Notes: a model not told the origin generated them from the sequence alone. Shown: positions 2 through 64,000, numbered from the stretch's first letter. The stretch: 64,000 nt of DNA from Candidatus Omnitrophota bacterium (GCA_037146775.1 JBAWWL010000001.1:69464-133463), one strand, 5' to 3'. Numbers and translations are program-made.

Positions 2-3000
2 GGTTTGATGCTTACCCTGCAAGACTATTTTCTTAAAAGGGCGCATTATGATTTGATACCCGAAACCATATATTATCCCGGCTATAGCAATGCAACTTAT
101 CTAGATGAATACTGCTTTTCTCGTGAATTCAGGGCAAAGCATGGAGTGGTCGATGAGGCGGCGAAAGAGATTGTGGATAGAGTTGGCCAGGATAATTTTT
201 CTAAGAAAGATAGGCCTAACCATATACCTACGGAGGCGACAGAAAAGATTGTTGCTGCAATTAATGCCTGGATTGATATAAATACAGATATAAGGTTATT
301 CCTTGACGATCTTTTGGGAAAACAAATAAATGCTTTAAGGTTACACTCAGGGCAGCCATTAGTCCTTTTTGATACCTTAGCATCAGGAAAAACAGTAATG
401 ACCATTGCGGCATATATTAGGCGGATGAGGCCTGATATTTCCGTAGATGTTATGATTGCTGCCTCCAAAAGTTACTTGCCTGGCGTTATGCATAAATATG
501 GAGGTATTGGCGCAGCGATGTGGGAACCGGTATGGCCGTTTTTCTTTGATGGCTTTGATGAAAATGGGCTTGTGCAGTTTTCTCAAGATAGAATTGGGAG
601 CAATATATTTGATTTTCTTTTATTTGCCATGCTTAGCTATAACCGTTCATTGATTGGTCAAGACTCTGAGTTAGAAGGAAGAATACTTAATGAAGCCCGA
701 GTGACTTATGGTGATAAATGGCAATTCCTTTTTCCTGAAGCAGAAGGAAGCGTTAGCTCTCCCTTGCGCTCTGCCGGCGATGATAGATTTAAACTTTTAT
801 ATCAGGCAGCTAAAGGCGCGCAGAGCGATTTTGGCAGTCTTTATTGGGAAATTCTTGATGTGTTTAGAAGGAGAACTTCTTTTGATAGAATGACTGATTG
901 TAAATATGTAGATGGAGCTCTATCGTTTGTTGACCGGCAGATAATTTTCCCGCTTCTATATCGACTTGAAGAAAACCGTGAGTCCCCGGTTGCCTTAACG
1001 CCTGATGAGGTATTTGAGTATTTTTGTAGAATTAGCGAAGCAATCGATGTTATATCCGGCTTATACGCGCAGGTTCGCTGGGATAAAAATATTTCTCAAA
1101 CTGCGGCCTATGAATTAAATTTTGACGATGGGCCTTTACATAGAATCATTGAAAAGGTGCTACTACCGTTACAAAGAGCTTTGAATCGCCATTGCGCGTC
1201 TTCGCCGTTTTTATCATCAAGTGAAATCGACAATTTTTATTCTCCCAACAATGCTTTTGGGGAGGGTAATTTATTATCACGCCACCATCAGGCAGATTTA
1301 ATTATTGAGGTTTTCCCTAAGACCATAATAAAGAGAGGAAGTGTCTATAGAAAGAAGGGCTGGCAGGAGACTTTACCAATAGACTTAGCGTCACAAAACG
1401 CAGATAAAATCCGCTCGGCAATACAGACTTTGAATGATATTACGTCGGCCGATAGCGACATAATAGCAAGAGCCCGTAGGTTTGAAGAGGAAGTTACCGT
1501 GGTAGAGGTAGCTATGCCGGGCCACTTCTTGCTTTACGGAAGGGACGAGCAAAGCCAAGCTTATTACCAGGTAACTCACATTGGCAAGGAAAGTAAAATA
1601 CTTTATATTCCGCGAATGTTTTTGGAGGACATAGAGTACCCTCAATATATTGCTACAGTTTTGCATCATGACCAGATGGAAATAGAAGATTATTCCGCCA
1701 TGATTGCAGCGGGCAGAATCATTACTTATACGGTCGTGGAGGAAGCCCATCAGCGGGCTTTGGGGGTAGATCCTTTCGGAGTTTATACAAAAGTTATCAC
1801 ACGATGCGAGCGCATGATGGCAGTGAGTGATATGTTTACTACGAGCTTAGCAAGAGAACAAAGAAAAAGCGTGCGTAGGCAAATTGTAGAAAAGGTAAAT
1901 CAATTAAAAGCAGTTAGGCTAGCAGATCAAAAATCAAGAAAAACTCTTCCCGAAGAAAGATTCCTCTTGGCGGATATATCAAAATTGAACATTCAACTAG
2001 CCTGTCTTTACGAGATTGATGATAGCCACAATAAGGCAGCAAGGCATTATAAGTTAGCTATCGAGACTTTAAGCGTCATTAAAACAGATGCAGAGATTGA
2101 TGTTGGTTTCCTTCCTTTGCAGATTCACACGCGTTTAGTGTATATTTTAGCACGGCAAAAAATGTTGAGCGATCTAAGAAGAGAATTCAATAATTTTGCC
2201 AAGCTGAATATCGGAAGAGCGATGAATGATGCGGAAAGAGTTCTTTTTACTCTTTATATGGATCGCAATTTTGAAGCTGTAAAAATGACGGTCATTGAAA
2301 TTTTAACGCGGCACCTTAAGGCGGCGCAAGAAGATAGAAAACCCGCCTTAGAGCAGTGGCGGATATCTCAGGCTATAAAATTTATACAAAGATGTAACTA
2401 TGCTCCTCCGACAAATAATGGTACCCCCAGTGCTTCCTCGGCGGTTAATAATTATTTTTCGCAATTACACAGGCTGTTATCGCCAACCTTTTTATTAACC
2501 AGGAAAAGTTCAAGTTCACGACTTGCTACGAGCTACTCACGGCTAAACTTTGCCAGCTCGCCGCAGAGCCTTGGTGATAGCGGAAGATATAATGGAGAAA
2601 TTGTCTTGGATCTTGGAGAGCCGCAGGCAGTGGATAGATATTTCATGAGAGAACTCAGATGTCTTGAACAGGCTAAAGTATCTTTCCTTGGACAGCTAAA
2701 AAATGCCTTTCGCAGAGGCTTTTTCCACGAGACATCAGCTTTGATAATAATTGATTTAGATGATAATTATTTAAGATTTGACGTTGATTTAACAAGGAAA
2801 TTTTTGAGAATAGTTTCTCAACAAGGAGAGCATAAGGTAGGCCTCCTGCTAAAAGGCGAATTTATCCAGCAAGGCCCGATGCCCCAAATATTAGTGCCTT
2901 ATGCTGATGTCTGGGTGGCGAGTGGAGATGGAGAAGTTACCCCACTCCTTAAATATATTGGAAAATTTGTAGACGAAAGATCAATCGTTGATTTAACATC

Positions 3001-6000
3001 CGAAGAATTGGATGAAGAGTTCCTGGCTAAGGTTTTTGATGGTATTGAAACCGCAGGCATTATGGGAAGGACTTTATTGGAAAGATGCATAAGAAAGCCT
3101 GTTTACTCAAAATTAGTTAAGGCGAGAATTAGGCAAGTGCAGATAACCCTCTTAGAGGGGATATTGGGAGATTTTTATTGGGATGTTCGTCCAATGGTCG
3201 CTTACGAAAAAGAGAGGGCCGGTATTGAGTGGCATACGCATCGTTTTAACAAAGATAACCACCTTAGTTTAGTTGACATAATTCATTGGGATAGGCCTAA
3301 TAAAGCAAAAATAGTTGTTACTGAAACAGCAGATGGCCAATCTTACAGGTTAGGGTTATATCGCCCCAAAAGTCGTAACGCCGTTAAGTGTGCGCGTAAA
3401 GATTATGATGCCCTTATAGATAGACTGGGCATAGAAGCTGCAGTGATAAATGAAGAAATACCCGAAACATATTTTTATAAACGTTATCTTAACCTTTTGG
3501 AAAGAGACTCGACTCAAGGTAAGGTTTCCTCGGCGGTAAAAAAATCCCGCATCGGACAAATCGTGGATTCATCAGCTAATTTTTCTTCAAGTCCAATCAG
3601 GAAGAAGCGCAATCAAGGTAAGGTAAAAAGAGATAAATCAACAGAAGAGTTTGAGCGTAAGCTTTTAGAAGCTAGGAGATTTTTGTGGCGATTGTCTCTG
3701 GTAGTTACTATTATTTTTGTGCCGATTATGTTATCGGTTTCAGCTAAAACTGCTTCAATTCTGGGTATAGCCATTGCAACAGTAAGCATTATTCTTGTAC
3801 TTACCAAATATATTCCGGCCTTACGGGCAGAGCATAAATGGGTTCTGGCCAGCGGTGTCAATGCCGCAACGGTTCAAGCTAATTGGTTTATCCGATTAGT
3901 GCGCAGCACCCAGCGTTTATTTACGGCGCTTACCTTGAGGCTAGGCATGGCAGTTGCCCGTTGTACCGGTGCTCGCGCGAAAATAGAAAATGAAATTAGA
4001 TTAAAGATTGCACAAGAGATAGCCGAAACCAGAGCTTCTCTTGAAGCCACATGCCAGGAACTTGCCAGGATACGTCAAGATTTAGATAGAGAAAGGCTGG
4101 AACTAGAGCAGGCGCGTACACGTCTTGATCAGGATAGACGTGATTGGGATAAGGCGCGCGCGGTAAGAGAGAAGGAAGTTACTCAGGCTCGTCAGACGCA
4201 AAGTGCTGCTGACCGGGCTTCCCATGCCGCTTGTGAGGCGCAAGAATCATTAATCCAGGCGCAAACAGAATGGGATAGAAGAAGACAATTAGCAGAAGAT
4301 GGTATTGCTCGGAGAATGCAGCAGCTAGCCTTACAGGAAGAAGAGTTAGTAGAGAGAGAAAGGCGACTTAGCGATGGGCAAGTAGATTTAATAAGACAAG
4401 AAGCAGCATTACAGCAAAAGGAAGAGGATTTAGAAAGGCGTCAACGCGCCGCTCAACAAGATTTAGATAGTCGGCATAACCGCCTTCGTCAGTGGATGCG
4501 ATCTCTCTTACGTCAAGGCAGATTCTTGGATCAAAAAAGAGCCAACGTGGATAGAGAAGAGCGAGAATCATTAGCTAGGGCAGAGGCTCTCAGGGTGCGT
4601 CAGGAACAATTATACCGACAGGAAGAATCGATTCGAACACAAACCAGAGAGCTTCGAGCTATGCAAGATATACTCATGCAGGATTTAGCAAATCTTACCC
4701 GCGAGAGGATTGCTTTAAGCGAAGAGGAACTTTCGCTTTCAGCTCGTTATGCCGAAATTGACTCTAGGATAGCACAGCTTAATACAAGGATTGCTTTGCT
4801 TGAGAGTATGCTTGGCCAGTGGCGCGAGGCAAGAAATTGGTTATTAAGCGAACAGCGCAAGCTAGACGAACAAGAAGATTCTCAAGGTGCGCAAGCAAGC
4901 CGCCTGCAAGCTTTAGCTGATGAGTTAACTCAGCGAGAGCAAGATTTAACCCGAGGTTTTTCTGATCTCGCCGCTTGGTGTACGCAGATGGAAAGATTGC
5001 AACAAGATCTTTCTCAGCGAGAGTCATTGCTTGTTGAGCGGGAAGCCCGGGCGCGAGACATTGAGGAAGGACGTTTACCTAAGGCTACAGATGAACTTAT
5101 CAGATTATTTGTTGAATGGCAGCAAAGAATCGCTATCGACCATACTTGTCTTTTTGAAAGAGAAGGTTTATTAATCCAAGAAATATTATCAAGTCTGCGC
5201 GCTGCAATATCTCTTTCTGCACGTCTTTCTGTGCTGGATTTTGTTCTACGAAACAGAATGCATGAAGCGGTAAATACGCTCTTAATAATTATTGTCGATA
5301 AACTCGATGAATCGTTTACCAGCGCATTATCTTCTACTGAAGAAGAAAACGTTATTTCTTTGTCGCGATTGATTGCGCCGGCATTATTAATCGTGGAGGG
5401 TATATCAGAACTCAGGCCAGCAGTAGATGGGGTTGGTATAGTCATTCCGCAAACATATACCGGTTTCCCCGCACGGATTTTAAGAGCACAGCGTTTTATC
5501 GAGGAGCGTTCGTATAGATTTGCCCAAGAGAGCCGTGATATTACAACAGAGGTAGAAAGTAACGAGGCATCTCTTACTAAAGGCCAAGCCTTAGTAATTA
5601 CGCATCGATTTAGCCGCCGACGCATTGTTTTAGAATGGAATGGTGAAACTGAATTTGTGACTTTTAGTCCAAAGCCGCTGGTTAAATTCACTCTTCATAC
5701 TCCTCTTGGCCTATGTCTTGTAAAGGGCCAGGAGTCGTATTGGTCTCGAGCTCACCAGCACCGCCCGCCTTTATCGCTGCACCAGAGACTTGCTAATCAC
5801 AGAAGACTTACCACAAGTGCTTCGGATACCGCTTCTGGAGTTTATAAAGAAAATGGCGTTGAATGTCTTAATCAGGCGAAAAAAGAAGGATCGTCTATAT
5901 ATATTTTTATAGACGATATGATTGAAGAATCAATGAACCACGGAATTGCCTTTTTGATTGACGAAATGGTGTGGCTATTGCGTTTACACTTATTAAGGAT

Positions 6001-54000: not shown

Positions 54001-57000
54001 AGGGCTCGGTAATAAGAACGTGTGGCATCTGAAATTTCACTATGAAAAAACAGCCAGCCTTAATAAATTATACGATATTCTTCCTACTTTTAGCGTAGAA
54101 GACAGTAAAAAACTTTTTGATGATTTTGGCGGCGGTATCACACAGTCTTTACGCGATGGCAAAACCGTTTGGATGTTCGGCATACCTTTTAGTTTTGACG
54201 GGGGAACTCTAGGTGTGAACATCAATGATGCCAGGATTGATTTTGACAGAGCCCAGCCTTTTGAAATTGCATCTAGTTCAATCGCCGATTCATACCCGCC
54301 AATGCAAGGTTTTAGAGAAATCCACAGAAGACGCACACCTATCTCAGGCAAGGAATATGATAGTCAGCTGTATTTTGATAGTGAAAAAAGAGCAGTCTTG
54401 TGGAAGGTGGATAATGCAGTGTTTGTGAGGAAATCTTACCAATCTCATCCAAAAGTAAATTTTTATCTTGCCGAGCTAAATACCCCGGTATCTGTGGTTA
54501 TGGAACGTATATTTATACGTGATCAGGTCAACGGCGATGAAACGCTTATTAATATGTGGGAGCCGCTATTTGGACACTATCTTTTTACTCCGCCCGAAAC
54601 CACCGAAGGCGCTATTTTTGCCATACAGGATTTAAGAGAAATAATTAAGGATAGAGTTTTTATCGATTTTGGAGCTGAGGCAGGAATCTTAAGTTTTTTA
54701 GCTATAGCATGTGGTGCCAGTAAAGTTCTTTCTTTGGAAAGGGAGTGGAAGCTTAGAGATGAAATCAGGCATAACAGGAGGATTAATAATTTATATGATT
54801 GGCAAGTCCAGGATTGTCGCGGCTTTGAGAGTGTGTGGCGGGACGAAGTCATGGGGGCGGTTGTGGTTATTAACATGGACGGTTATTTCTCTCCGGAAGC
54901 GTTACTTGAAGTATTAGATAAAGGAATTCCTGCGGCCATAATATTATCAGGCGGGCATTATGCCAGAGAAAGATTAGATCCGGTATTAGAAATATTAAAT
55001 CAATACGGATTTTCGAACCGGATTATAACAATAGAACCATTAATTGGGATAAATCCATTAGAGAGCAAGCCTTTTGCTACAATCATTGCAACCCGCAACA
55101 TGCGGTCTGTTTCGGTCATTAGCTCGTCTGTTAGTTCCCCGCAAACACCTAGCTCGATACCCATGGCTAATTACTCACGACTAGGCAAGGCTAGCTCGTC
55201 CATAGATAATTATGATGAACCGTATTTAGAGCTTCACGTTTTAGAGGAATTGAGTCTTTTTAGGGAAAAGCTTGAATATGGGATGAGCTTTTTTAAGGCA
55301 ATTCTTTATCATGGCACAGGATCGGAATTTTCAGAATGGGACATTAACTTAACGAGTTCGCTCTCTAGCCGTTTAGAGCCAGCAGGTATTCGTTTGAGTT
55401 TTGCAAGAGATTATGCAGCTGGGTTTGCTATAGGAGAAGAGGCGAGAATTATTAAGTGCCGCGTCAGTTTAAAAAATCCGTGGTATGTTTCACGAACGCG
55501 TTTTTTTGCATACTTTCTATTTATTGGACAAGCGCTAGAGGAGCTTGCTTTGAGGCGGGGAGTTACTTCAGAAGATAAATTGTCGATTCCCGAATGCCGT
55601 AGCTACGTTAGGCAACGCATGCTAGAGCAAGGATATGACGGGGTTGTGCGTTGTGATGTCTCGTGTATAGAGGTAATCGCCTTTCATCCGCAAGCACAAA
55701 TTGAAGTTATAGAAGTATTTTGCGCTAGCTCAGCGATAAGTTTATTACAAGACACAAAAGAAAAAATTATAAAGGCGCTTGAAACTAAAAAAATGCCGGT
55801 TGATATAGCTAAAGAGCGAGCAATACCCGCGGCATTCTCTGCTGTGGATAGTGTTTTTGATATTCATACTCGGCCACAAGCATATGAGTTAGTTCTGGGG
55901 ATGGCTCTTGGTTTGATAGCTAAAGAGATTCCTGTCTGTAGTACTTTAGAGTATGGGGTGCCTTTGGCGATTCGTGATTCTTGTGCTTGTTTGTATGTAT
56001 TTAGAGAAAATATTTTTTGGCTTACCCGGCTTGCTGAAGATTTGTATCTTTCGTCGCAAGGCCCCATAGATCCTTACCAAACCCTTATTTTGGCGGGAGC
56101 ACTTTATGGCGAAGTTAGAAGAATCAAGACGTTTGAGGGTCTTCTTGAACGGGCCAGGCAAGATGTTAATAGAGCCAGGGTTGGTAAATATCCTAATGAA
56201 GAAGGGGTTATTGAAGTTAATATCGGCACGCAGGAAATTAGTGTTAACGAAGTTGATACAAAAGGAGAAAAATTTGATTTCAAAAATCCCGTAGAAGTGA
56301 GCCAATTTAAAAGAGAACATGGACAAGCTATTGATACAGCTTTAGGCGAAAATTGGAGAGACGTTCTTTTGGCTCAAATAAATCGTGATATTGGTGGAAT
56401 TATCTTGGGCCATGAAAGTGTTTATGTAACTTTTGCTCATTGCTGTGGTGGTACTGTGCAGGGAAGAATTATTGCCAAAGTCAAGATTCCGGCTTATAGC
56501 TTAAGAAAAGCTTTAGATTCAGTTAGCGATGGCCATTCTGCAAGCTCTCCGTTATTAATAATAGAAAATTTTACCTACTGGAGTAATGATTTTGACGGTC
56601 GTTACAGCGAGGATAGGGCGTATCATTTTGCTATTGGTGGAAAACAGGTATGTATTTCTGATCTTGAGTATGTAAAGATAACTATTCTTATTAAGCCTAC
56701 TAAGGTGATATACCTTGCAGTAGACCACAATACAAGTTGGTTCCATACTGTTTTGGCGTATAAAGAGGGCATGATCGGGGGTAATGAATTATTTGCACAC
56801 ATAGATCATAAGCAACATCCCGATGACCGCGCAATAGAGGCTAATCCTCCAGGTCGGTATGAGGATATTGGTTGGCACATTCAGCATTTAGCGCAAGGAG
56901 GTGCCAGTATTACCGGATATGTTACAGCTTTGCATAAAACATTTCCTGATATGATATTTTTGTTTCTTAAGCAATCAGATGGTGGTTCGGATGGCTGGGG

Positions 57001-60000
57001 AGGTGTTAGCTTTGATTGGGGTGGCTCAATTTTTAATTTGCCATTAGAGTATTTAAATAAAATTAAGATTGCTAGTATTGACTTGGATATGTTTACTAGT
57101 GATGTTTCTTCTAAAGAATTACAAAAGAAACTCATAGAAGTGCTCAGCTATGTCAGGGTAGGAATGGTTATTATTTCTCCAGCCGGTCCACAGGAAGCCG
57201 GTCAGCAACAGGCAATATTAATGAAAGAAATAATTGAAGATTTACTTGATAAGTTGATTCCTGGATGGAGATTACAAGAATTGGGGAGTAATGCTTTCGA
57301 TCCAACGAAGAGTTCTAGTGCTGTTCTTAACGGTCATCATGAGTCCAGGCTTTATTACCCATCTATAACTATTTGGGCTGTTCATCCAACTTTACGACAG
57401 TGCAGAGAGGTGATTAAGTGGGTCGCAAAAATGCCATGGCGCAAAACCGCTATAGTAGTGATTATTCCTTCAGATTGGGAAATGGCCTTAAAGTTTCTCA
57501 GAGATCGTGTTATCGCCAATCAACACTATTTTTATATGTTTATGTGTGAGCATTATATAGACGACGAAGGATGGTTTAATGAACAAGATATGTATAAAAT
57601 CAATGAATTGCGGCTAAAACTATCCGGGCGAGGATTAATAGCTGACGATCATTATCTATACGGTCAAAATACGCCTAACTGTATGAATATTATAGCTACA
57701 TGTCTGGCTAGAGGACTTATTTATAAGGGGCAATGTTGCAGTCCGCGTTTTAGCCGCAAATATACTCCATGCAAAAATTATTGTAGCTCAAATAAACTTT
57801 TTGTTATTGAAGATTTTACAATTACTGGAAGAAAGGGAATTGGCGTTCTTAATGACGAACAGCGTCGCGATTATACTCTTTTGAGTTTACATATTTCTGA
57901 GATTGAGAGGAGATATTTTGATACCGGCAATGGCGCTACCAGTTCTCCAGCTATGCACAGAAAAATGAAAGAAAAAGAACAACAAGAAAGAAAATCTTGG
58001 TTGTGGCAGGTTATTACAGGTCAGTTTACCTTTCCGTGGCTGGTGGGAGCTGACCAGCCTGCCGCAGCCGTCTCGTATGGTTACAGAGTAATGTCTTTTG
58101 TGATGACAAAATCATATCTTTTTAGTAGCCTTGCTAATAAAGCCCCTCCGTCTGTGAGCGTTTCGTTGGTCAGTTCTCCGCAAAAACCTAACTCAATACT
58201 CGCGACTCACTACTCACGACTAGATAAAGCCAGCTCACCCAATGCAAAGATCTCAGCTACGGCAGCCAGAATGGCAGAAATTTTTAACAATACTATTACC
58301 CATCGCAGCGATGTATGCCATGAAGATCTATTATTGCGCAACCGGCGAGTCCGGGAACTAAAAATATTTGGAGATGCTCTTGTTGGGCAATCGGGAAAGT
58401 TTGATGATCTTGATATCCTGGGAATAAAACTTGAAGAATTAAAGGCTGGTAAGTTTCTAGAAATAGGCTCGGGTAAAAAATGTCTAATCGGTCGCTTTTT
58501 AATCGACCAATTAGAATTTGATTCCGCTAATGTTTATGCGATAGATCCTATGATGGAAGAACCCGGCAAAGATTTTGATAATAATAGCGGGCGCTTTGTA
58601 AAAGGTATCATAGAAGAAATTCCGGAATTATTCCGGGAAATCAGCTTTAATATGATATATGCAGCATATGTGTTTTCCATCAGAAGAGGTTCTATAAAGT
58701 CCGGTTTACGCAAGATTGACCCTGGAAAAGCAGCCCGAAATGTTGATGTATTTTTGGCGCCCGGCGGAACACTGATGGTGGCAGGTAAAGCTATGCCGTC
58801 TGACATGGCTTGTGAATTGGCAAGTAGATTAGCCCAGCCTTATATCTGTCAGCGACCGGGAAATCAACATAGCCTATATTATTACACAAAGCTTCAGACT
58901 TTTTCTAGCTCGCCGGGTTCCCCCAGCACCAGCAATAGCTCCAATTATCGTAAGACATTAGGCCTGTTTCGGAGAAAAGATGACATCGAAGCATGGAAAG
59001 CGCTTAATCCTGTTTCTCCTATTGATGAGAATAAGTTGCCACGCCTATTCCCTAAAGGGGTTACGTATGGGTCGCAATGGAATTATTTAAGAGGTGAAAA
59101 GTATGAAATGAAAGGATATGTGCATACTGGTTTAGATTTATTAGTTCCAGCTTCTACCCAAGTAAGAGCAATTGCCGAGGGTACGGTATTTATAGGAAGA
59201 TATAAACACGAAAAAGGTGAATATGTTGTTGTTGATCATGGAAAGGGAATGCTGTCCTTGTATATGCATGTCATTCCTCGAGTAAATACCGGACAGAAAT
59301 TGGCGAAAGGAGATGTTATAGGTGAGGTAATGCATTCATCAATACATCCATCCCATCTTCACCTCGAATTATTAGCAAATATGGAAATATCCACAGAGGC
59401 ATTTCCGCGTGAAGGAGAAGATACGTTGGAAGATAAGGAAATAAACAGGCGGTGGACTTTTATTAAATACAGTCGAGAAACGAACAGCTTGGATCCGTTA
59501 TTGGTTCTTCCACAGATAGCCGAAGGAGCGGTAATAGAAGATGATGATAGCATTTTGATGGGTGCCGATAAAGGTGCAGGCTACGCCAGCTCGCCGTCTC
59601 AATCAGTCTGTAGTCAACGGTCTACAGTCAACGGTCGAGAAAAAATGCAAAATTTTGGTGATAGGCTATTGATTATACCTGCCTGCCGGCCAGACACGGG
59701 CTATGGGCGAAATCACGCCAGTTCATCTATGTTGGACAGCAGCGTCGGCCTTTCTGTGAAATATGTGAAATTTTCTTCGCCAGGTATTCCTTTGGAGTGT
59801 GACTATAATTGGCTCCAGCTGCAAAAAGGTATTCTTCTTGAATCTTATGCAGGTAATTTGTCGCCGGAAGCCAGCCGTCTCTTGCAAGAGCCGCAGATAG
59901 CAATTTGGAATGATACGTTTACTCCGCGCATCTACCTTGAATTCGCATGGAAAACCTACCCCCCTCAGAATAATCCATGGGTTAGTATCTTATACAAAGT

Positions 60001-63000
60001 CATCGAAATCTCGGTACGCAAGCACTTAGAGATTAAGGCGGGAACTAAAGAGGATGAATTTTTCAGGCAATTTTGTTATATTTCTGAAAAAGAAACAGAC
60101 AGTTTGGTTAAACCTACACAGTTACAGATTATAGGATTACGAACCGATACATTCAGGGTGCCGGATTTCTGGAAAGCTCAGCTCATTTGGCAAACCTGGT
60201 TATTTTGTAATATGTGTATGGGCCATGTCCAGGGTTTTATTCCAAGGGTTTTCCCTGACACATCTATCGGGCCGGCAGGCATTGATGATGCTTTACATTT
60301 AATTTATCTCATTGGTTTGGGGGGGATGGGTATTCCTGCCAGCCTAAATATCAAAGCTGCTGATATTAAACGTTATTTTTCCTCGCTTGGCTTTGGGTAT
60401 AGCCTGATTACGCAGTGTGGATGCTCCGAGCAATCATTACTCGCAGAAGAAAGAATTCAAGAACTGGTAGAGCATTATAAGGTCACGTTAGCGTTAAAAA
60501 CGCGTACAGATTACAATATCTATAAAGCCCGGTGCGATGCCGTAGATAAATTTAATTTAGCTGATGTTGAGTCGTGGCGTCGAGAGCGAGTAGAGCTGGA
60601 ATTAAGCGCTTTAGAGCAGCAAGGATTTAAAGCCGCAGCCGAGGTGCGCAGGCGCTTAGGGTTTGCCTCTGCAAGTTCTCCATCTCTGCCCGCCAGCTCG
60701 CCGGTGACTTCTAAAGAGTGCACCATATTAGTGCAAACTGATTTCTGGAAAGAGATTTCTGATATGTATGCATGGCCAAGAAAACCTAACGTTAAAAAGA
60801 AAGATAAATTGCTTGCGATAGTAGAGGGCCAATTTATTGATTGTTTACTACTGGAGAGAGTTCAGACAATATTGAAACAATTGGAACTCTTTAAATATTT
60901 TAATTATAGATATGAGGGGTTACAAATGAACTATTTCAGTAGTTTACTTGACCACATTATTGTTAACAGTGTTGATGCAATTTTTGAGAGAATTGACCGG
61001 GGTAAATCCGGGCATCCGCGTTATAATCCCCAAGAGTCTATAGCCCAGGCCCAGGCTCAGATACTTTTCTCTTTGTGTAAATACGATGGGGATGGCCCTC
61101 TGTATGAAGCGGTTTTAACTGATAATGGGGTAGGCATATCACTAGATCTTATGCGAACTTGGTCCACATGGACAAGAGATATTTTATTTCAATATACTGA
61201 AAATACCGTTGGAAGAGCATACCTGCCAATCCCCTCATCTTTTTCAACAAAGAATAGGGAAATCTCGGGTTTATATATTGGTCAACGCGGAGGTGGAATG
61301 GTGGAGTTTTTTCTTGATGCTGAAATAGGAAAGTTTCAAGTGACTATTGATTCCTGCCAGCCAGAGCAACGGGGTTACAGGTTTATACAGAGCACACAAG
61401 GTAGAAGAAACGTTCTTAACGCCTCCTGTGCGGCAATAGGCACCAAGGTTACTTTACGCGTTAAGTGTGCCAGTCGAAAAAGGTTTCAAGAAGTTAGTTC
61501 ATGTACTACTAGCCCTCCGGATGAGAATAAAAGGGGCGAAGCGATTAGTATGCCAAAAAATGTAGAAGCAGAAATTTTTATGGTTGATGTTTTGTTCGCG
61601 ACCAGCGAAGTCATTAGTTCATCAATTTGCGGTTTGCATGATTCTGGCCCGAATGATCCGAACGCGAGCAGTGCCGTAGGTCAGGGGCTTGAGTATGAGG
61701 TTAATACGCGGTTAAGTGAACCCGCTGATTTTAAAAAAATAAACGGTACTATTGCCGTAATTGGCGCATCAGGCTTTCTTGGTAGCTATATATATCTAAA
61801 ACTTTTATGGCTCGGCGCTCGCGTTATTGGGACTTTTTGTCACACCAAGATCGCGCCGCTTTTGGCGAATAATATGTGTTATCTTGATGTAACCGATGCA
61901 CGCCAGGTAGAAAAATTCATGCAAGATCACCGTCCGGCAGTAGTTATATATGCAGCAGGAGCTGTTGCATCAAAAGAAGAAGGACGAAATACGGAAAATA
62001 TAGAAGCGTTAAATATTGCCGCCATTGATAATATTGCCAGTTACTTTGGAAGCCATTTTATCTATTTTTCCAACAGCCAGGTTTATAGTGGAAAGAATCC
62101 ACCTTATACCGTTAATGATCCTGTTGATCCGATCAACCAGCGCGGAAAAATAAAGGCTGCCGGAGAGGCAATGTTGTTTGGTCGTCACAGAGATAGCTTT
62201 GTACGTTCAAGCGTAGTACGCGCCGGATTATTTTACGGCTATAGTATGTTTTGGCGAAGAATGGATGTTGTAGGCGATATCGTGCACAGGCTTAAACGCG
62301 GCGAGGCAACGATTGAAGCCGATAACTATCAGATCAGATATCCTGTTTTGATTGATGATGTTGTGGCGCATACGCTTGATATAGTAAAACACAGCGCTTA
62401 TGGCATTAGCCATATTAACGGTTTAGAGCCAGTCACAAGGTATGAATTGGCAAAAATGGTTGCTGGTATGTATGGAGACCTTACCGCTACTACTAGTGAA
62501 ACACTTATTATTCCTAAGCAAAATATTTTCCGCAATGAACCATTGGATAGTCGGCTAGTTAATACGTGTGGTATCGAGCTTACCCCACTGGAGGTCGGTT
62601 TACGCAAGGTGGTTTCTTACTATATTTGGTCGCAATCGGACCATCCGACTAGCTTGCTCCAAAAACCTTTAGGTGCCGGTCAAGCCAGCTCGCCGCAGGC
62701 CAGCGGCTTCGCCACTAGGCGAGCGAAGTCTCGCCTGTCGCAAAGTAATGAGGCGGACTCGCCAGGTGACCCGCGCAAACTTTCTTTTTATTCTAAGCTG
62801 CCAGATGGTTTTCAAAGAAATCGCAACAAGTATGGAAGGGCTTTATCCGGCGAGTGCGAACCGTGGGCGCGGTGGGCATTTAGAAGATTGAAAAATTATC
62901 TTAAAGAAGAGAAGGGGTTGATTAAGGAAGTGTATTTGATGTTTTTATGCGATGCGAAATGTCACACATCAATTGGGCATGCTTGGGTTGAATTTGTTAC

Positions 63001-64000
63001 TGTTGATGGCGTACGCTGGCTTAGTGATGGGACAATCAGTCAGTATGACCGCTTTAAAAGCTTGCGCGATGGTTTAGCCATTCCTTTAGTAGAATTATCG
63101 CCGGAGCAAAAGTGGTATTATTGTAGCGATAATGATGAGGTGTGGATAATTCTTGAAGAAGATTCTTCCGGCACCAAGCGCACAATTAACAATTGCGAAC
63201 GTAACAGGCATTTTACCCAAAACTCGGTAATAAGCGCGTCTGTCTCCAGCCCTTCGATTCGCTCCGCTCACTCAGGACATCGGTCCGCTTCGCCAAAGCT
63301 TCAGCGAGGAGAACATGGCAGTGCCTCTAGCTCATCGGTGATAGGTCCCCCATGTTTGACCGTAGCGCCGGAAAAAATTTTAAATGTAACGCTAGTTAAT
63401 TTGATTTCCTTACAATTCATAACACGTAGTCAATCAGGTCTTGCGATTAAGACTTTAACAGGTTATCTTGAGGCGAAGAAAAGACAAACAAAAAGAAAAG
63501 AAATAATAGTGCGTATGCTTGATATGCAAGAAATGTACGATAAGGTGAGCGATGCTCATCAGGAGGCAGGAGAAGATGTCATAGAGAGAGATTTTTATGA
63601 TGTTGTTGAGCAAGTGATTCAAGAGATTTGTGTTATCTGTCAAAGCGGCTATGCCGTGGTGGGCCTATCTATGAAATGGCAGACAATGCTTCCAGCAACG
63701 CTTATTATCCAAGGTGTACGCGAAAGATTAGCAAAGGTAAACGTAGCGGCGCCATTGTTTGTCATCGGTAATATCATCGCAACCTTTGGTTACGAAGAGC
63801 TTCTTAATCGGCAACCTTTTACAGACACAATAGCCGTGGTGGGAGAGGGTGAACAGGCGCTTGAGGCAATTGCAGAAATGGCCTTAGGGTCACAAAGCCC
63901 CCAAGGACTTACTGACTCTTCCCGTTACAAAGATATAGCTAATGTGGCAGTAAACATAGGAGGCAATATCTGCCAGTTGCATAGTGGAGTGCTGGATTTA
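2..64000 (+). CDS. Internal fragment of a giant multidomain ORF, partial at both ends, at least 21,333 codons in window. Mosaic of radical-SAM, methyltransferase, kinase, phosphatase, peptidase, dehydratase and membrane modules.
   Basis: Codon phase starting at nt 2. Manual codon-by-codon reading shows no in-frame stop across the window under the standard code. The ORF track has no + strand ORF in this phase. It has only short ORFs in + frames 1 and 3 and short minus-strand ORFs. Recognisable enzyme motifs occur in this phase along the entire length. Confidence 0.88.
3680..3820 (+). other. Two predicted transmembrane helices (FLWRLSLVVTIIFVPIMLSV ... ASILGIAIATVSIILVLT)
   Basis: Two ~20-aa uninterrupted hydrophobic stretches, flanked by basic residues. 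Confidence 0.6.
3970..5090 (+). other. Long coiled-coil region (~370 aa), rich in Gln/Glu/Arg/Leu with heptad character
   Basis: Translation reads ...IRQDLDRERLELEQARTRLDQDRRDWDKARAVREKEV...LQQKEEDLERRQRAAQQDLD...; low-complexity charged heptads. The antisense strand here yields the longest spurious ORFs in the track. Confidence 0.7.
6380..6900 (+). other. Possible class-I SAM-dependent methyltransferase-like fold (weak)
   Basis: Motif-I-like GKVILKDIGPGRGKII followed by acidic loop spacing. No further motifs checked. Confidence 0.3.
7400..8650 (+). other. Cobalamin-binding-like domain plus radical-SAM-like core (variant Cys spacing CX6CX2C)
   Basis: IRVFAGGPLVSAEGEAKTALKEMM...VLINGEAEELLPEV resembles the B12-binding domain of class B radical SAM enzymes. 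It is followed by ILYVPERGCRRNPRCSFCSF. Confidence 0.45.
10381..10775 (+). repeat. Intragenic ~125-aa module, copy 1 of 3 (DWPLILSTIEQNLLMQPCYRDE...LYTGITLSNLSQYLGYYTLVWEEF...ENLRPAKASSAI)
   Basis: ~75% nt identity to copy 2, with near-identical ends (aaggcgtcaagcgcgatagatgcc vs aaagcgtcaagcgcgatagagcta). Confidence 0.8.
12040..12415 (+). repeat. Intragenic ~125-aa module, copy 2 of 3
   Basis: DWVLILSTIDRPLLMQSCYRDEYVAVVVSTEHEEQKFLAVMLKQRIYCDDAATRGVLPAPILYTGITLSNLNQYLSHYTLIWEEFKRF...ENLRPVKASSAI. Confidence 0.8.
13020..13390 (+). repeat. Intragenic ~125-aa module, copy 3 of 3 (more diverged)
   Basis: DWPIILNNIYQSLLIQEQYLGDYVEVVVSADHEEQNLLAVMLKQRIYCDDAVTRGVLPVPVLYTGIILLSLSQYLSHYTLAWGEFRKF...EELRPRKDRSSS. 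Confidence 0.75.
14760..16210 (+). other. sdaA-like: Complete single-chain L-serine dehydratase ([4Fe-4S]-dependent; SDH beta + SDH alpha) embedded in the giant ORF
   Basis: The hallmark motifs are in the correct order and spacing relative to E. coli SdaA. They are FCGPSSSHTAGA (N-terminal beta-domain motif), VGAPTGGSCGIIPAVL, GSVGGCQAEIGSATAMAAAAL and GTTCEPVEGFVEVPCIDRNGLGAA (alpha-domain Cys motifs). Confidence 0.88.
17130..17660 (+). other. Class-I SAM-dependent methyltransferase fold
   Basis: Motif I DMLEVGSGDGSISDF, then acidic residue after beta2 (GIEVWPPY) and post-I spacing. Paralogous to the 50560-51070 domain. Confidence 0.5.
18040..18540 (+). other. Class-I SAM-dependent methyltransferase fold
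   Basis: AIDLGSGLGGSVGW (motif I), GADVQGVDILEEN (motif II), FDIALCLDIIYLMP, LKPGGKLAIHS (motif IV-like). Confidence 0.6.
19150..20260 (+). other. Amidohydrolase-superfamily, adenosine/AMP-deaminase-like domain
   Basis: KRERHTHVTMS (HxH metal motif), ISMHLGDF (HAGE-like), EGIVDRIGHG (RIGHG motif), downstream VYGSDG (TDD-like). Confidence 0.45.
20680..21160 (+). other. GHKL-type ATPase domain (HATPase_c; histidine-kinase/anti-sigma-kinase-like)
   Basis: N box EVFWNAIDHSPRGG, G1 box FNQGVGVD, G2 box EIGGLGLFLARQ, then GGTIEIYSTRGVGVLVAIVLP. Confidence 0.75.
21720..23300 (+). other. Helical region containing an internally duplicated ~90-aa unit (ALELFRSQPYRSIWPADAHLI... / ACDLFLREPQRSIWPGAERLI...)
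   Basis: Two copies ~1.27 kb apart with conserved RSIWP-x-A and downstream CxDPL motifs. Function unknown. A TPR-like stretch precedes it (21290-21700). Confidence 0.4.
23850..24250 (+). other. Possible bacterial Ig-like (Big) beta-sandwich domain
   Basis: Alternating beta-strand pattern VGKKFTIIVEILDVQGNPDVKVREKITFESSDSEA...HVFSITFGTVG. Weak. Confidence 0.25.
25745..26350 (+). repeat. Polytopic membrane module (about 6 TM helices), copy 1 of 2 (paralog at 35085-35705)
   Basis: PMRVIRIVSAIAIPIIAVILSVYFGGYYILLVESGFF...LFGGLYLAIFVFGAWYWFLNNY...PQYIVLIAVNSQILWSGFMMYWLESW. ~50% aa identity to copy 2 with conserved FGGLYLAIFV, FFI(Y/H)K(Y/F)LVCLN and PQYIVLIA. Confidence 0.7.
27608..27652 (+). 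repeat. Linker micro-repeat variant (ACTCAGTACTCAAGACTCACGACTAAATAAAATCAGTTCACCG)
   Basis: Same family as 30215-30266. Confidence 0.7.
30215..30266 (+). repeat. Linker micro-repeat: 3x ACTCACGACT-type decamers followed by AAATAAAACTAGCTCGCCG (encodes NSRLTTYDSRLNKTSSP)
   Basis: Direct tandem repeats visible in the sequence. The same motif occurs in seven other places, including a one-unit variant at 2531-2563. Confidence 0.8.
30400..31300 (+). other. Radical SAM domain (canonical CX3CX2C)
   Basis: LQLTYRCSFGCDDC, then GAGETT (GGE-like), VMIVTNTYL. Radical-SAM core order. Confidence 0.7.
32560..32830 (+). repeat. In-frame element B, copy 3 of 3 (diverged; hairpin 32596-32658)
   Basis: Conserved core ttggttgcggcgggatcggggctggcctacctttccgtggctggcggaggccaacttccctgccgta. 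Ends with SSPLS linker. Confidence 0.6.
34130..34900 (+). other. Calcineurin-like metallophosphoesterase (PPP/ApaH-type phosphatase fold)
   Basis: VVIGDVHDN (GDxHG), IYLGDYADSSDD (GDxxDRG), ILGNHDFA (GNHE), later LVLGHI (GH motif). Confidence 0.75.
35085..35705 (+). repeat. Polytopic membrane module, copy 2 of 2 (paralog of 25745-26350)
   Basis: TIRVMRLLSVVTIPIAAIMLSFYFGGWYIITVKSGFF...LFGGLYLAIFVYGAWFYILNTY...PQYIVLIAANLGILYSGILIYYLEEW. Confidence 0.7.
36721..36776 (+). repeat. Linker micro-repeat variant (TTCTCACTCCATACTCCATACTCAATACTCAATACTAGATAAAGCCAGTTCATCC)
   Basis: Degenerate ACTCMWTACTC tandem units ending in ...AGATAAAGCCAGTTC. Same family. Confidence 0.65.
36840..37860 (+). other. 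Third polytopic membrane domain (about 9-11 TM helices), unrelated to the 25.7k/35.1k modules
   Basis: Consecutive hydrophobic helices: VILALLTALTHALGFLFLGM, LAFWLFFFNLFTACIVFYLLA, IISSIILYFIFPYVPGAIILTFL, IVGVSIIAILGLLPMLA, LYGIVIGLMYGLI, VISYAVGLLVMALTVFFIF, ILLPFFIGITFFIGTWICAL, LPPLAVILGAFIAA. Confidence 0.7.
38150..38182 (+). repeat. Linker micro-repeat variant (CGCGACTCACGACTTATGAATCACGACTAATC)
   Basis: Same family; followed ~40 nt later by a TSSPLS linker. Confidence 0.65.
38240..39320 (+). other. Hanks-type Ser/Thr protein-kinase-like domain with substituted catalytic residues (predicted pseudokinase or atypical kinase)
   Basis: Gly-loop LGEGSYGKVFKV, VAIK-like YALKV, subdomain IX DIYSFGIVLFEM. 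The catalytic loop reads IVIKELKPDHIIL instead of HRDLKPEN (Asp to Glu). DFG is replaced by DLE. Confidence 0.6.
39440..39960 (+). other. gmk-like: Guanylate kinase-like domain
   Basis: P-loop FVVGPSGSGKSTL, then RNRLPKPGEEKRNSRVFVSAQEF...RGNWYGY, matching the Gmk pattern TRxPRPGExxGxxYxFVSxxxF...GNxYGT. Confidence 0.72.
40030..40640 (+). other. HAD-superfamily hydrolase domain (beta-phosphoglucomutase/phosphatase-like; motif I variant DLNHT)
   Basis: ALILDLNHTLY (motif I, second Asp replaced by Asn), KPDPELY (motif III Lys), VVGDSVDKDIEPAQRAGA (motif IV). Confidence 0.55.
40930..41420 (+). other. P-loop NTPase/kinase-like domain
   Basis: Walker A RLFGPPGSGKTEV. Downstream HDIDVLIVETSD is Walker-B-like. 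Confidence 0.45.
41620..42000 (+). other. Possible GNAT-type N-acetyltransferase fold (weak)
   Basis: HSVFVTLHNQHVFGDKRLYKFVGARLMQTAAII resembles GNAT motif A (R/QxxGxG/A). Low support. Confidence 0.25.
42600..43500 (+). other. Radical SAM domain (canonical CX3CX2C)
   Basis: LVIGPGVCSLGCEHCLQ, then WCIGEPFEN (GGE-like), ITFVSNLS. Confidence 0.65.
46325..47220 (+). repeat. ~300-aa module R, copy 1 of 2 (paralog at 59783-60680); function unknown
   Basis: LECNYNWLEAEKHILLESFSSPE...FTPRIYYELAYW...KTWLFCNICMGQAQGF...AWRRRLVKLELEVLSRQGFILATEVSKRLGF vs LECDYNWLQLQKGILLESYAGNL...FTPRIYLEFAWK...QTWLFCNMCMGHVQGF...SWRRERVELELSALEQQGFKAAAEVRRRLGF. Confidence 0.75.
47221..47535 (+). repeat. In-frame element B, copy 1 of 3 (~320 nt; contains conserved hairpin 47283-47348 and terminal ACTTATGACTCGCGATTAAGTAAAAGTAGCTCACCG linker)
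   Basis: ~80% nt identity with 57930-58250 over ~320 nt. Encodes SSPVTHRKTKEAEKQERKPWLRQVVFGQLTFPWLVGAGQPAVAV...KSYLFSSLANKSPP...YDSRLSKSSSP. Confidence 0.8.
50560..51070 (+). other. Class-I SAM methyltransferase fold, paralog of 17130-17660
   Basis: LLEVGGADSLLSLFMAHAFNLHATSVEVVRAWCEYAEIYRS... aligns residue by residue with DMLEVGSGDGSISDFMAHKFGIRATGIEVWPPYCEYANFLRD... Confidence 0.45.
52100..53250 (+). other. Cobalamin-binding domain plus radical SAM core (class-B-like radical SAM)
   Basis: ALVIIGGPSAQYPEQLAALVVDFDFLVRGDGNEILPELL (B12-binding-like), then LYLRYGCPHNCSFCNDP (CX3CX2C) and MVQLGTDG. Confidence 0.75.
54560..55100 (+). other. Class-I SAM methyltransferase fold
   Basis: VFIDFGAEAGILSFLAIACGASKVLSLE (motif I + acidic end of beta2), VVINMDGYF. 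Confidence 0.55.
55170..55200 (+). repeat. Linker micro-repeat variant (TTACTCACGACTAGGCAAGGCTAGCTCGTCC)
   Basis: Same family; single unit. Confidence 0.6.
57930..58250 (+). repeat. In-frame element B, copy 2 of 3 (hairpin 58010-58068)
   Basis: Encodes SSPAMHRKMKEKEQQERKSWLWQVITGQFTFPWLVGADQPAAAV...KSYLFSSLANKAPP...YSRLDKASSP. Stem shows ggtcag/ctgacc where copy 1 has ggccag/ctggcc. Confidence 0.8.
58380..58860 (+). other. Class-I SAM methyltransferase fold
   Basis: FLEIGSGKKCLIGRFL, VYAIDP, FLAPGGTLMVAG. Confidence 0.55.
59050..59400 (+). other. Peptidase M23 (LytM/lysostaphin-type zinc metallo-endopeptidase) domain
   Basis: HTGLDLLVPASTQVRAIAEGTVFIG (HxxxD), YVVVDHGKGMLSLYMHV, GDVIGEV, HPSHLHLEL (HxH). 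Canonical M23 motif order. Confidence 0.8.
59783..60680 (+). repeat. Module R, copy 2 of 2
   Basis: See copy 1. Both copies end in an SSP linker. Confidence 0.75.
60900..61420 (+). other. Second GHKL/HATPase_c-like ATPase domain
   Basis: IVNSVDAIFERIDRGKSGHP (N-box-like), AVLTDNGVGISLD (G1), GQRGGGMVEFF (G2). Confidence 0.5.
61740..62620 (+). other. NAD(P)-dependent epimerase/reductase, RmlD (dTDP-4-dehydrorhamnose reductase)-like Rossmann domain
   Basis: IAVIGASGFLGSYI (GxxGxxG), RPAVVIYAAGAV, PINQRGKIKAAGE (YxxxK region variant). Overall RmlD-like length and order. Confidence 0.65.
63620..64000 (+). other. Start of another cobalamin-binding-like domain (probably N-terminal part of a further class-B radical SAM module; truncated by window end)
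   Basis: VVGLSMKWQTMLPATLIIQGVRE...PLFVIGNIIATFGYEELL...DTIAVVGEGEQALEAIAEMA. Confidence 0.45.

Follow-up and report, generated by a model that had tools for sequence, protein, structure and literature searches.

A 64-kb stretch of DNA that probably lies within a giant multi-enzyme gene of an uncultivated Omnitrophota bacterium

Giant open reading frames (ORFs) have already been documented on a large scale in tiny, host-dependent Omnitrophota, where the single-ORF giants are among the longest predicted proteins of any organism and their role is still a puzzle. ORFs of more than 20 kb, in which annotated domains are few and conservation is poor, occur in 77 of 116 Velamenicoccia genomes (Seymour et al. 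2023, PMC10066038). Giant proteins of up to 85,804 amino acids (aa) have been described with many transmembrane (TM) regions, frequent SecA-DEAD domains and N-terminal C39/S8 peptidases; among them is the ‘Archaeovorin’ type, drawn from a set of genes >90,000 bp and rich in glycosyltransferases, methyltransferases, glycoside hydrolases, peptidases, S-adenosylmethionine (SAM)-dependent methylases and NUDIX domains (West-Roberts et al. 2023, 10.1101/2023.11.21.568195). Its type sequence is the 39,678-aa protein of Velamenicoccus archaeovorus LiM (10.1101/2023.11.21.568195; PMC10066038). In a more recent catalogue, 3,650 proteins reach 10,000 aa or more and 348 reach 30,000 aa or more, the longest measuring 147,155 aa; its authors sort the long proteins of Omnitrophota, in which TM segments make up about 2% of residues, into three architectural classes; TM helices and/or a signal peptide are found in 100% of proteins of at least 50,000 aa and 98.6% of those of at least 30,000 aa, and a ‘TM-only’ topology accounts for 46% of the catalogue (Nielsen and Lui 2026, 10.64898/2026.06.07.730766). 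Here we describe JBAWWL010000001.1:69464-133463 (GCA_037146775.1), a stretch of 64,000 nucleotides (nt) analysed as a whole and called the window below. We read it, with a probability of roughly 0.85, as part of the interior of a single giant protein-coding gene that belongs to an uncultivated Omnitrophota bacterium and is of the multi-enzyme (‘Archaeovorin-like’, class 1) type, and thus as a further example of a known phenomenon.

Frame +2 of the window (nt 2-64000) contains no stop in 21,333 codons, a count made in the initial annotation and reproduced on recomputation; as no TAA, TAG or TGA is present, the ORF can be explained without stop-codon reassignment. The other five frames carry 1,901 (+1), 1,441 (+3), 1,233, 827 and 1,388 stops, and their longest stop-free stretches span 85, 97, 151, 226 and 115 aa (the first two on the plus strand), matching the earlier limits of 90 aa on the plus strand and 225 aa antisense apart from the definition of an ORF. 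The 225-aa antisense ORF was found again; it is one of three antisense ORFs (140-225 aa) that we take as spurious because they are of low complexity and lack any Pfam match. Given the base composition (GC 42%, stop probability 0.0636 per codon, or about 1 per 16 codons), approximately 1,357 stops would be expected in 21,333 codons, and log10 P(0) is -609. Each 3-kb slice shows a coding signature in frame +2, with G at the first codon position (G1) at 0.28-0.37, GC1 > GC2 > GC3 and purine-any-pyrimidine (RNY) codons highest in frame. Codon usage is homogeneous, with r = 0.94-0.98 when each of eight 8-kb segments is compared with the remainder, as is tetranucleotide usage, and GC skew is positive nearly throughout. 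No tRNA genes and no taxonomic marker genes were found in the 64-kb window. Start and stop both fall outside it, so the proposal that it is an internal piece of a giant gene holds.

Domains were placed along the chain by Pfam, NCBIfam and PDB-sequence searches, with amino acid positions converted as nt = 3*aa-1. These searches bear out the earlier statement that many enzyme domains are encoded, though one enzyme motif every 1-2 kb was too generous an estimate: about 20 domains, mostly different, are detectable with Pfam or NCBIfam over the 64 kb, and they are unevenly spread with gaps of 5-9 kb (match-free stretches include nt 2-7,400, 21,300-30,400 and 43,000-52,000). At least 15 distinct families are represented and none is dominant; radical SAM and B12-binding are the most repeated, with 3-4 copies each, and two or three of the three radical-SAM cores are accompanied by B12-binding domains. 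In a motif scan, catalytic motifs were intact in the M23, radical-SAM, metallophosphatase, P-loop and serine dehydratase modules; three CxxxCxxC motifs coincide exactly with the three radical-SAM matches, and two Walker A loops are present. The Fe-S L-serine dehydratase module (nt 14774-16132) is complete, apparently intact and the strongest domain match of the window, and carries both the CGPSSSHT motif and the cluster cysteines (GGCQAE, TCEP, VPC). The P-loop kinase and the HAD phosphatase that follows it form one unit bounded by the tripeptide Ser-Ser-Pro (SSP; aa 13124 and 13617), with the Walker A loop GPSGSGKS at aa 13153. For the Ser/Thr kinase-like module, activity is uncertain because a regular-expression search did not find the canonical HRDxKxxN in it. 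The three diverged copies of a paralog family with HEAT-like repeats form a probable scaffold, and the B12-binding domain cut by the window end is probably the start of a further B12-radical-SAM module.

Homologous sequences tie this ORF to the Omnitrophota. An exhaustive phmmer search with aa 19301-20500 against 1.84 billion cluster representatives gave no match at E <= 1e-30 (top match 112 bits; the matches were mostly generic M23). The two best annotated matches of the exhaustive protein search, P0003 (1,013 aa; MBU2103330.1, labelled partial [Candidatus Omnitrophica bacterium]) and P0008 (853 aa; MDD5618777.1, labelled partial, Candidatus Omnitrophica/Omnitrophota bacterium), are short fragments, each filling a contig of some 3 kb. 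A degenerate-pattern scan of GTDB species genomes with the methyltransferase-like module found one locus, L001, which covers 20.5 kb of the 107-kb contig JBDRAN010000035.1 (‘MAG: Candidatus Omnitrophota bacterium’; MAG, metagenome-assembled genome) and in which one frame stays open for 6,841 codons until a stop. A scan of JGI metagenomes gave L002, 21,173 nt without any stop on the 280-kb metagenome contig Ga0265297_10000111. L001 and the window have five blocks in common at 33-71% identity, and L002 and the window have blocks in common at 25-58% identity, in each case in a different order (Table 1). The relatives are equally poor in Pfam matches, with Pyridoxal_deC and Trypsin_2 in L001 and Pkinase in L002. 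All three relatives that bear a taxonomic label (L001, P0003 and P0008) are Omnitrophota. The comparison with Omnitrophota giants in the initial annotation is therefore now backed by homologous sequences, but the significance attached to it was overstated: a protein of 21,333 aa is no longer near the top of bacterial proteins, the known maximum being 147,155 aa (10.64898/2026.06.07.730766).

The window thus belongs to a family of giant ORFs with conserved, unannotated modules that have been reshuffled. The module at aa 411-814, conserved in both L001 and L002, has no Pfam match even at E <= 1. Modules X and Y are each present twice, and their order is inverted within the window (X1-Y1 versus Y2-...-X2, flanking other modules); X is 27-31% identical to P0008 and Y 45% identical to L001p 1609-1682. 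This inversion, together with the different module orders of the window, L001 and L002, indicates evolution by module shuffling at linkers. The ORF also has about 20 candidate TM helices, corresponding to approximately 1.9% of residues (20 aa each over 21,333 aa). Among them, the cluster shared with L002 is predicted to be the main membrane anchor within the window, while paralog D1 is bounded by ASSP motifs, the SSP sites being aa 8564 and aa 8806. GC content dips clearly at one place only, nt 36000-38000 (GC 0.376, skew -0.013); this is the site of the TM cluster, and the dip can be ascribed to its Phe/Leu/Ile-rich helices, which make the coding strand T-rich. A second dip in skew, at nt 10-12k, falls within the HEAT-like paralog region.

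Taken together, these modules would fit the following mechanism. Transcription and translation of the gene would yield a single very long chain, which would be inserted into the cell membrane by its TM segments, resulting in an array of tethered enzymes on flexible linkers. Such an array would perform envelope and small-molecule chemistry (peptidoglycan cleavage, sugar-nucleotide modification, methylation, phosphorylation and dephosphorylation) and would serve the host-dependent or predatory lifestyle proposed for Omnitrophota, and the family would evolve by module duplication and shuffling at linkers. As most modules need [4Fe-4S], SAM, cobalamin, ATP or NAD(P), this stretch most plausibly faces a cytoplasm, which could be the producer's own (the ‘TM-only’ topology) or that of a host after delivery. 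A part in cell-envelope chemistry, to which the M23 and RmlD-like modules point, agrees with the proposed predatory or episymbiotic role. The function of the giant protein is in this way one that we infer from its sequence.

Several points weigh against this assignment and the mechanism attached to it. The TM calls derive from hydropathy only, and between the M23 module and those that depend on ATP or SAM there is no clear TM helix, which is awkward for a simple cytoplasmic-face model. Single-sequence AlphaFold2 models of aa 405-805 and of the TM cluster (aa 12250-12663), the latter all-helical, had a mean predicted local distance difference test score of 47.7 each and are too poor for a fold search. 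Of the features listed for Archaeovorins, SecA-DEAD, glycosyltransferase, glycoside hydrolase and NUDIX domains had no Pfam or NCBIfam match within the fragment; a SecA domain could sit in another part of the gene. An exact 53-mer (nt 61-113) was absent from IMG/VR, GTDB genomes and JGI metagenomes, leaving start, stop and neighbours unseen, and the phylum is assigned from four relatives that have isolated modules in common with the window. Word-indexed protein searches (5.8 billion clusters) returned nothing for nt 21002-24001, for nt 33002-42001 or for a 3-sequence alignment of the best conserved module. The same collection also failed to return the window or the homologous ORFs on L001 and L002; it may thus lack very long ORFs, and its lack of matches says little about rarity.

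Table 1. Features of the 64-kb window and blocks that it has in common with its relatives.
Feature	Position (nt)	Strand	Evidence
Single ORF, both ends open, at least 21,333 codons	2..64000	+	0 stops, coding signature, uniform codon usage
Conserved unannotated module (aa 411-814)	1232..2443	+	56% to L001p 4027-4444; 58% to L002p 3334-3722 (window aa 414-800)
Pair of candidate TM helices (aa 1228-1268)	3683..3805	+	Kyte-Doolittle 19-residue windows 2.15, 2.29; uncharged
HEAT-like paralog family A, three diverged copies (aa 3089-3590, 3662-4139, 4317-4461)	9266..13384	+	self-BLASTP 26-71%; DNA repeat family D1 71-76%; weak HEAT_2
Fe-S L-serine dehydratase, beta-like then alpha-like in one chain (aa 4925-5377)	14774..16132	+	SDH_beta 2.3e-12; SDH_alpha 3.1e-53; TIGR00720 2.5e-49; PDB 4rqo 5.4e-36
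Two SAM-methyltransferase-like modules (DOT1-like aa 5714-5799; Methyltransf_11 aa 6032-6127)	16880..18382	+	DOT1 3.6e-4 (below cut-off); Methyltransf_11 4.5e-9; NF045667 8.8e-11
Histidine-kinase-type ATPase, HATPase_c (aa 6862-7092)	20585..21277	+	Pfam 2.3e-5; NCBIfam sensor-kinase models to 1.3e-13; CheA P4 structures 2.4e-7
Paralog D1, unannotated module with about 4 TM candidates (aa 8552-8808)	25655..26425	+	47.6% to aa 11669-11924; TM candidates aa 8586, 8656, 8691; 25% to L002p 5730-5904
Heptamer element, copies 1-7	27573-27672, 30186-30285, 36696-36795, 38132-38180, 47448-47547, 55122-55221, 58161-58260	+	repeat families D2, D4; nhmmer E 1e-6 to 2e-24
Radical-SAM core 1 (aa 10154)	30461..30901	+	Radical_SAM 0.0027, weak; TIGR04317 1.3e-6; intact CSFGCDDC (CxxxCxxC) at aa 10159
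Calcineurin-like metallophosphoesterase (aa 11382-11609)	34145..34828	+	Metallophos 6.2e-7; GDVHD, GDYAD, GNHD; PHROG NinI-like phosphatase 3.9e-7
Paralog D2, second 4-TM copy (aa 11669-11924)	35006..35773	+	self-BLASTP; TM candidates aa 11697, 11772, 11810, 11875
Highly conserved unannotated module (aa 12096-12226)	36287..36679	+	70.7% to L001p 6310-6442; no Pfam match
TM cluster, about 8-9 candidate helices (aa 12250-12620; helices aa 12294-12611)	36749..37861	+	hydropathy; 54.6% to L002p 1616-1987
Ser/Thr protein-kinase-like module (aa 12754-13081)	38261..39244	+	Pkinase 1.1e-9; 29% identity to L002 kinase module
P-loop kinase (guanylate-kinase/PhnN-like) then HAD phosphatase (aa 13147-13545)	39440..40636	+	Guanylate_kin 1.1e-6; Hydrolase/HAD_2 5.6e-16; TIGR02253 3.7e-22; PDB guanylate kinases 3.5e-9
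Radical-SAM core 2 (aa 14228)	42683..42964	+	Radical_SAM 0.0019, weak; CSLGCEHC at aa 14229
Unannotated modules X1 (aa 15437-15733) and Y1 (aa 15742-15846)	46310..47539	+	self-BLASTP 38-59% to X2, Y2
B12-binding and radical-SAM, class B radical-SAM methyltransferase-like (aa 17332-17692)	51995..53077	+	B12-binding 1.2e-4; Radical_SAM_N2 1.5e-4; Radical_SAM 3.5e-5; TIGR04013 1.7e-9; TIGR03975 3.6e-9; CPHNCSFC at aa 17511
Possible ADP-ribosyltransferase, ART-PolyVal-like, weak (aa 18434-18566)	55301..55699	+	PF18760 25-27 bits, E ~1e-5, below 31.2-bit cut-off
Paralogs Y2 and X2, around M23 module	57935-58252 (Y2), 59774-60664 (X2)	+	self-BLASTP 38-59%
Methyltransferase-like module (aa 19441-19630)	58322..58891	+	41% to P0001; 40% to P0003; 40% to L001p 3334-3506
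M23 (LytM-type) metallopeptidase (aa 19707-19793)	59120..59380	+	Peptidase_M23 3.2e-17; MepM/ShyC models; HTGLD (HxxxD), HLHLE (HxH)
RmlD/NAD-dependent epimerase-reductase, sugar-nucleotide chemistry (aa 20584-20825)	61751..62476	+	RmlD_sub_bind 4.2e-23; Epimerase 5.7e-15
B12-binding domain (aa 21183-), cut by window end	63548..63871	+	B12-binding 6.5e-5
L001 heptamer copies	L001 3223-3284, 4975-5011, 5165-5200
L001p 4027-4444 versus window aa 411-814			56% identity
L001p 6310-6442 versus window aa 12096-12226			71% identity
L001p 3334-3506 versus window aa 19442-19630			40% identity
L001p 1758-2073 versus window aa 14748-15052			33% identity
L001p 1609-1682 versus window Y module			45% identity
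L002p 3334-3722 versus window aa 414-800			58% identity
L002p 1616-1987 versus window aa 12250-12620 (TM cluster)			55% identity
L002p 98-352 versus window aa 12739-13013 (kinase)			29% identity
L002p 5713-5904 versus the window's two 4-TM paralogs			25-26% identity

Module boundaries in the window are marked by a short recurring peptide. SSP occurs 51 times where 4.5 are expected (approximately 11-fold), and [AS]SSP 28 times where 0.7 are expected (approximately 40-fold), mostly as [A/S/V/T]SSP within short Ser/Pro linkers. The sites lie almost exclusively between modules, often a few residues from the edges of paralog or homology blocks. They bracket the kinase (aa 12742/13124), the methyltransferase-like module (19411/19636), M23 (19636/19863) and X2 (19925/20225), and further sites fall at aa 12099 and 13617. 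As the Ser codons used at these sites are varied, selection acts at the peptide level, and SSP is a candidate plain linker or processing site. In L001, SSP is found 27 times against 2.0 expected, six of them as RASSP, whereas L002 has plain poly-Ser in its place. The relatives also carry a recurring linker variant, ‘LDNGG / NGGR-ASSP’, seen at L001 aa 2043 (ASLDNDGGRASSP) and aa 3772 (FDNGGRASSP) and twice as SSLDNGGEV in P0008, which resembles double-glycine (C39-type) processing sites; the window itself has one poor match only to double-glycine motifs such as LDNGG, at aa 7593.

If SSP were a processing site, the chain would be a bacterial polyprotein, from which cleavage at [A/S/V/T]SSP linkers would release dozens of individual enzymes and membrane proteins; the protease could come from another part of this ORF, as a C39, S8 or trypsin-like enzyme, or from the cell. 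We judge this unlikely. The excess of SSP, its varied Ser codons and the precision with which it brackets modules all agree with cleavage, as does the Trypsin_2 domain that L001 carries along with the same motif, and N-terminal C39/S8 peptidases have been suggested as enzymes that might cleave giant proteins (West-Roberts et al., 10.1101/2023.11.21.568195). Yet Ser/Pro-rich linkers are common in multidomain proteins that are not cleaved, the conserved residues at SSP sites number no more than four, L002 has poly-Ser instead, and M23 is the sole protease domain within the window; proteomics of V. archaeovorus is too sparse to decide. We know of no protease with specificity for SSP linkers. Cleavage would in any case refine the assignment to a giant multi-enzyme gene and not contradict it.

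A second junction feature is visible at the nucleotide level. Seven copies of a heptamer element, 45-100 nt long, lie at module linkers, all on the coding strand and in the same phase; in each, about five ACTCAnn units in tandem lead into CTA-RRT-AAA and then the SSP codons. The defining pattern has 11 matches against 0.04 expected. Within the units ‘ACT’ is 90-97% invariant irrespective of codon phase, and identity by codon position is 0.59, 0.74 and 0.64, so that third positions are not the most variable. The Leu codons of the element, CTC and CTA, are the rarest of the ORF (5% and 8%), and by codon adaptiveness six of the seven copies rank among the lowest 0.1-1.4% of 13-codon windows, forming a rare-codon cluster. 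Against codon shuffles, period-7 runs number 4 versus 0.1 in the window and 4 versus 0.0 in L001, with no other period from 6 to 12 enriched. For one of the L001 copies the reading frame differs, and an indel ahead of the SSP codons compensates for this. The phase-independent invariance of ACT, the rare Leu codons, the period-7 enrichment and the frame change in L001 together point to constraint on the nucleotides of the element and not on the peptide. In each of the seven copies, the +1 frame runs into a stop precisely where the array ends, and the +2 frame does so within 5-11 codons of the array's beginning. Another heptamer run, (G/A)GTCAGA x4 at nt 45109-45140, encodes RGQRPDVRSQ and adjoins the SSP at aa 15033, and linkers of L001 also have arrays of GTCACCA x3 and GACTATN x5.

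On these features, ribosomes might be programmed to pause at the heptamer element while the chain folds co-translationally or inserts into the membrane. Alternatively, the element may be a ‘frameshift trap’ in which slippage gives a clean truncation at the linker, leading to length-variable products or phase variation, or a substrate for recombination in in-frame module shuffling. That functional nucleotide-level junction elements of this kind govern translation, truncation or rearrangement of giant genes is a speculative proposal, and we hold it to be quite improbable; if true, the heptamer element and SSP would mean that giant genes are assembled from defined junction elements and also regulated there. 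No Rfam family reached the gathering threshold in the window, L001 or L002, and RNAalifold gave no consensus RNA structure for the element. Searched elsewhere, its specific 3′ pattern had no match, and the loose pattern ACYCANN x4 is unspecific, matching >120 unrelated IMG/VR contigs. A text search of the giant-gene preprints found no mention of heptamers or linkers, and SSP punctuation was likewise not found in the text of Nielsen and Lui; both the boundary peptide and the heptamer element seem to be previously unreported.

A mobile-element origin for this combination of enzymes can also be considered, in which the window would encode a polyvalent protein of a phage or conjugative element, with conflict enzymes (ADP-ribosyltransferase (ART), M23, kinases, methylases) that are delivered into a target cell. 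Such proteins typically include M23, methyltransferase, kinase and phosphatase domains, the window has a weak ART-PolyVal match, and PHROGs matches to endolysin, tape-measure and minor head proteins were obtained via the M23 domain. We nevertheless find this reading highly improbable and reject it, since phage tblastn, IMG/VR and PHROGs gave only generic single-domain matches. A tblastn search with aa 18001-21000 against 50,697 phage records returned generic M23/epimerase hits only, at <=10% query cover, and IMG/VR contained no exact match or relative of the conserved module. Domain and PHROGs scans of the window found no structural, packaging, replication, relaxase or MuF-type domain, and the contigs of the relatives (107 and 280 kb, Omnitrophota chromosomal MAG) speak for a chromosomal setting. 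The ORF in the window is, to our knowledge, more than three times as long as any polyvalent protein.

Just as implausible is an assembly artefact, with separate genes joined chimerically or by collapse and the frame kept by chance. Tandem Repeats Finder detected no tandem arrays in the window, self-BLASTP yielded no more than 13 pairs of internal protein paralogs, which are 25-71% identical, and the dispersed DNA repeats are 56-270 nt long and 68-81% identical (the longest, of 270 nt, at 71-76%). With neither tandem repeats nor long near-identical ones, assembly collapse is unlikely; dispersed repeats are present and would favour a misjoin, as would the 53-mer missing from all three collections, but they are too diverged to mislead an assembler. 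Any joins would moreover have to keep the frame and lose every start-proximal and stop codon; for the latter, P(0 stops) is about 1e-609, codon and tetranucleotide usage is uniform throughout, and the two independent relatives, from other assemblies, are equally uninterrupted. Nothing in the sequence suggests chimerism. A polyketide synthase (PKS)/non-ribosomal peptide synthetase (NRPS) megasynthase or a repetitive giant adhesin (RTX, Ig-like), for which size alone would argue, can be dismissed for the window, as it has 0 KS, AT, C, A, KR, DH or ER motifs, one chance ACP-like match and no PKS/NRPS Pfam family, and 0 tandem arrays, 13 paralog pairs only and no adhesin Pfam match.

The giant multi-enzyme gene that we favour is a sequence-novel example of its kind, as no protein in a library of about 15 billion has more than an isolated module in common with it. 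Its legible set of cofactor enzymes (Fe-S serine dehydratase, B12/radical-SAM, kinases, phosphatases) bears on the side of the membrane on which these proteins would act, and comparison with L001 and L002 gives a direct view of how the family evolves, by shuffling conserved unannotated modules at linkers. SSP and the heptamer element offer testable handles on the making, folding, possible cutting and rearranging of a chain of >20,000 residues. These junction features leave the classification unchanged, and the window is useful as material on a known puzzle and not as a new kind of system.

For the junction features themselves, several analogies can be drawn. Viral polyproteins offer one of mechanism, as one ORF likewise codes for many distinct units split by a short recurring peptide motif; here, however, the gene is cellular and a dedicated protease was not identified in the window. 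Rickettsia palindromic elements are in-frame repeats inside genes, and Haemophilus hmw loci carry heptanucleotide contingency repeats. The heptamer element is also short, dispersed and translated inside coding sequence, and like the hmw-type repeats it has a 7-nt unit in which slippage would shift the frame. It differs from the Rickettsia elements in not being palindromic, and from contingency repeats in that its units are imperfect, so that slippage is expected to be rare, and all its copies sit within the linkers of a single gene. Polyvalent proteins of phages and conjugative elements, reportedly the subject of work by Iyer et al. in 2017, likewise string unrelated effector enzymes (ART, peptidase, methylase, kinase) on one chain, but the window is far larger and predicted to be membrane-anchored, its relatives are chromosomal in Omnitrophota, and no mobile-element context or phage homologs were found.

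Closer parallels are found among the Omnitrophota giants. Compared by their published description, Archaeovorins are giant Omnitrophota ORFs with many TM helices and divergent domains, and the window is likewise a giant ORF with many candidate TM helices and divergent domains, with methyltransferases, SAM enzymes and a peptidase (M23); the role proposed for Archaeovorins is in attacking or exploiting a host cell. Because only part of the testable Archaeovorin features was found, we do not file the window specifically as an Archaeovorin and therefore place it in the broader class of Omnitrophota giant multi-enzyme ORFs. The nearest counterpart is class 1 of Nielsen and Lui (10.64898/2026.06.07.730766). 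In contrast to class 1, the window is without the sugar-metabolism set (starch synthase, GT1, PGM, ROK), is a fragment that does not include the N-terminus, and contains a Fe-S L-serine dehydratase (‘serine dehydratase’ was not found in the giant-gene preprint text searched). It likewise exceeds 10,000 aa in a single ORF, with a lower bound of 21,333 codons, and its candidate helices, called by hydropathy, make up about 1.9% of residues versus the reported 2% or so. The window and class 1 are both mostly unannotated and near-unique in sequence, with repeats that are old, diverged and non-tandem. Both tile many distinct Pfam families, none of them dominating, and the window has the same signature families as Pfam Modules 1 and 2 of class 1 (PF08241, PF02518, PF13419, PF04055 and the HEAT family PF13646).

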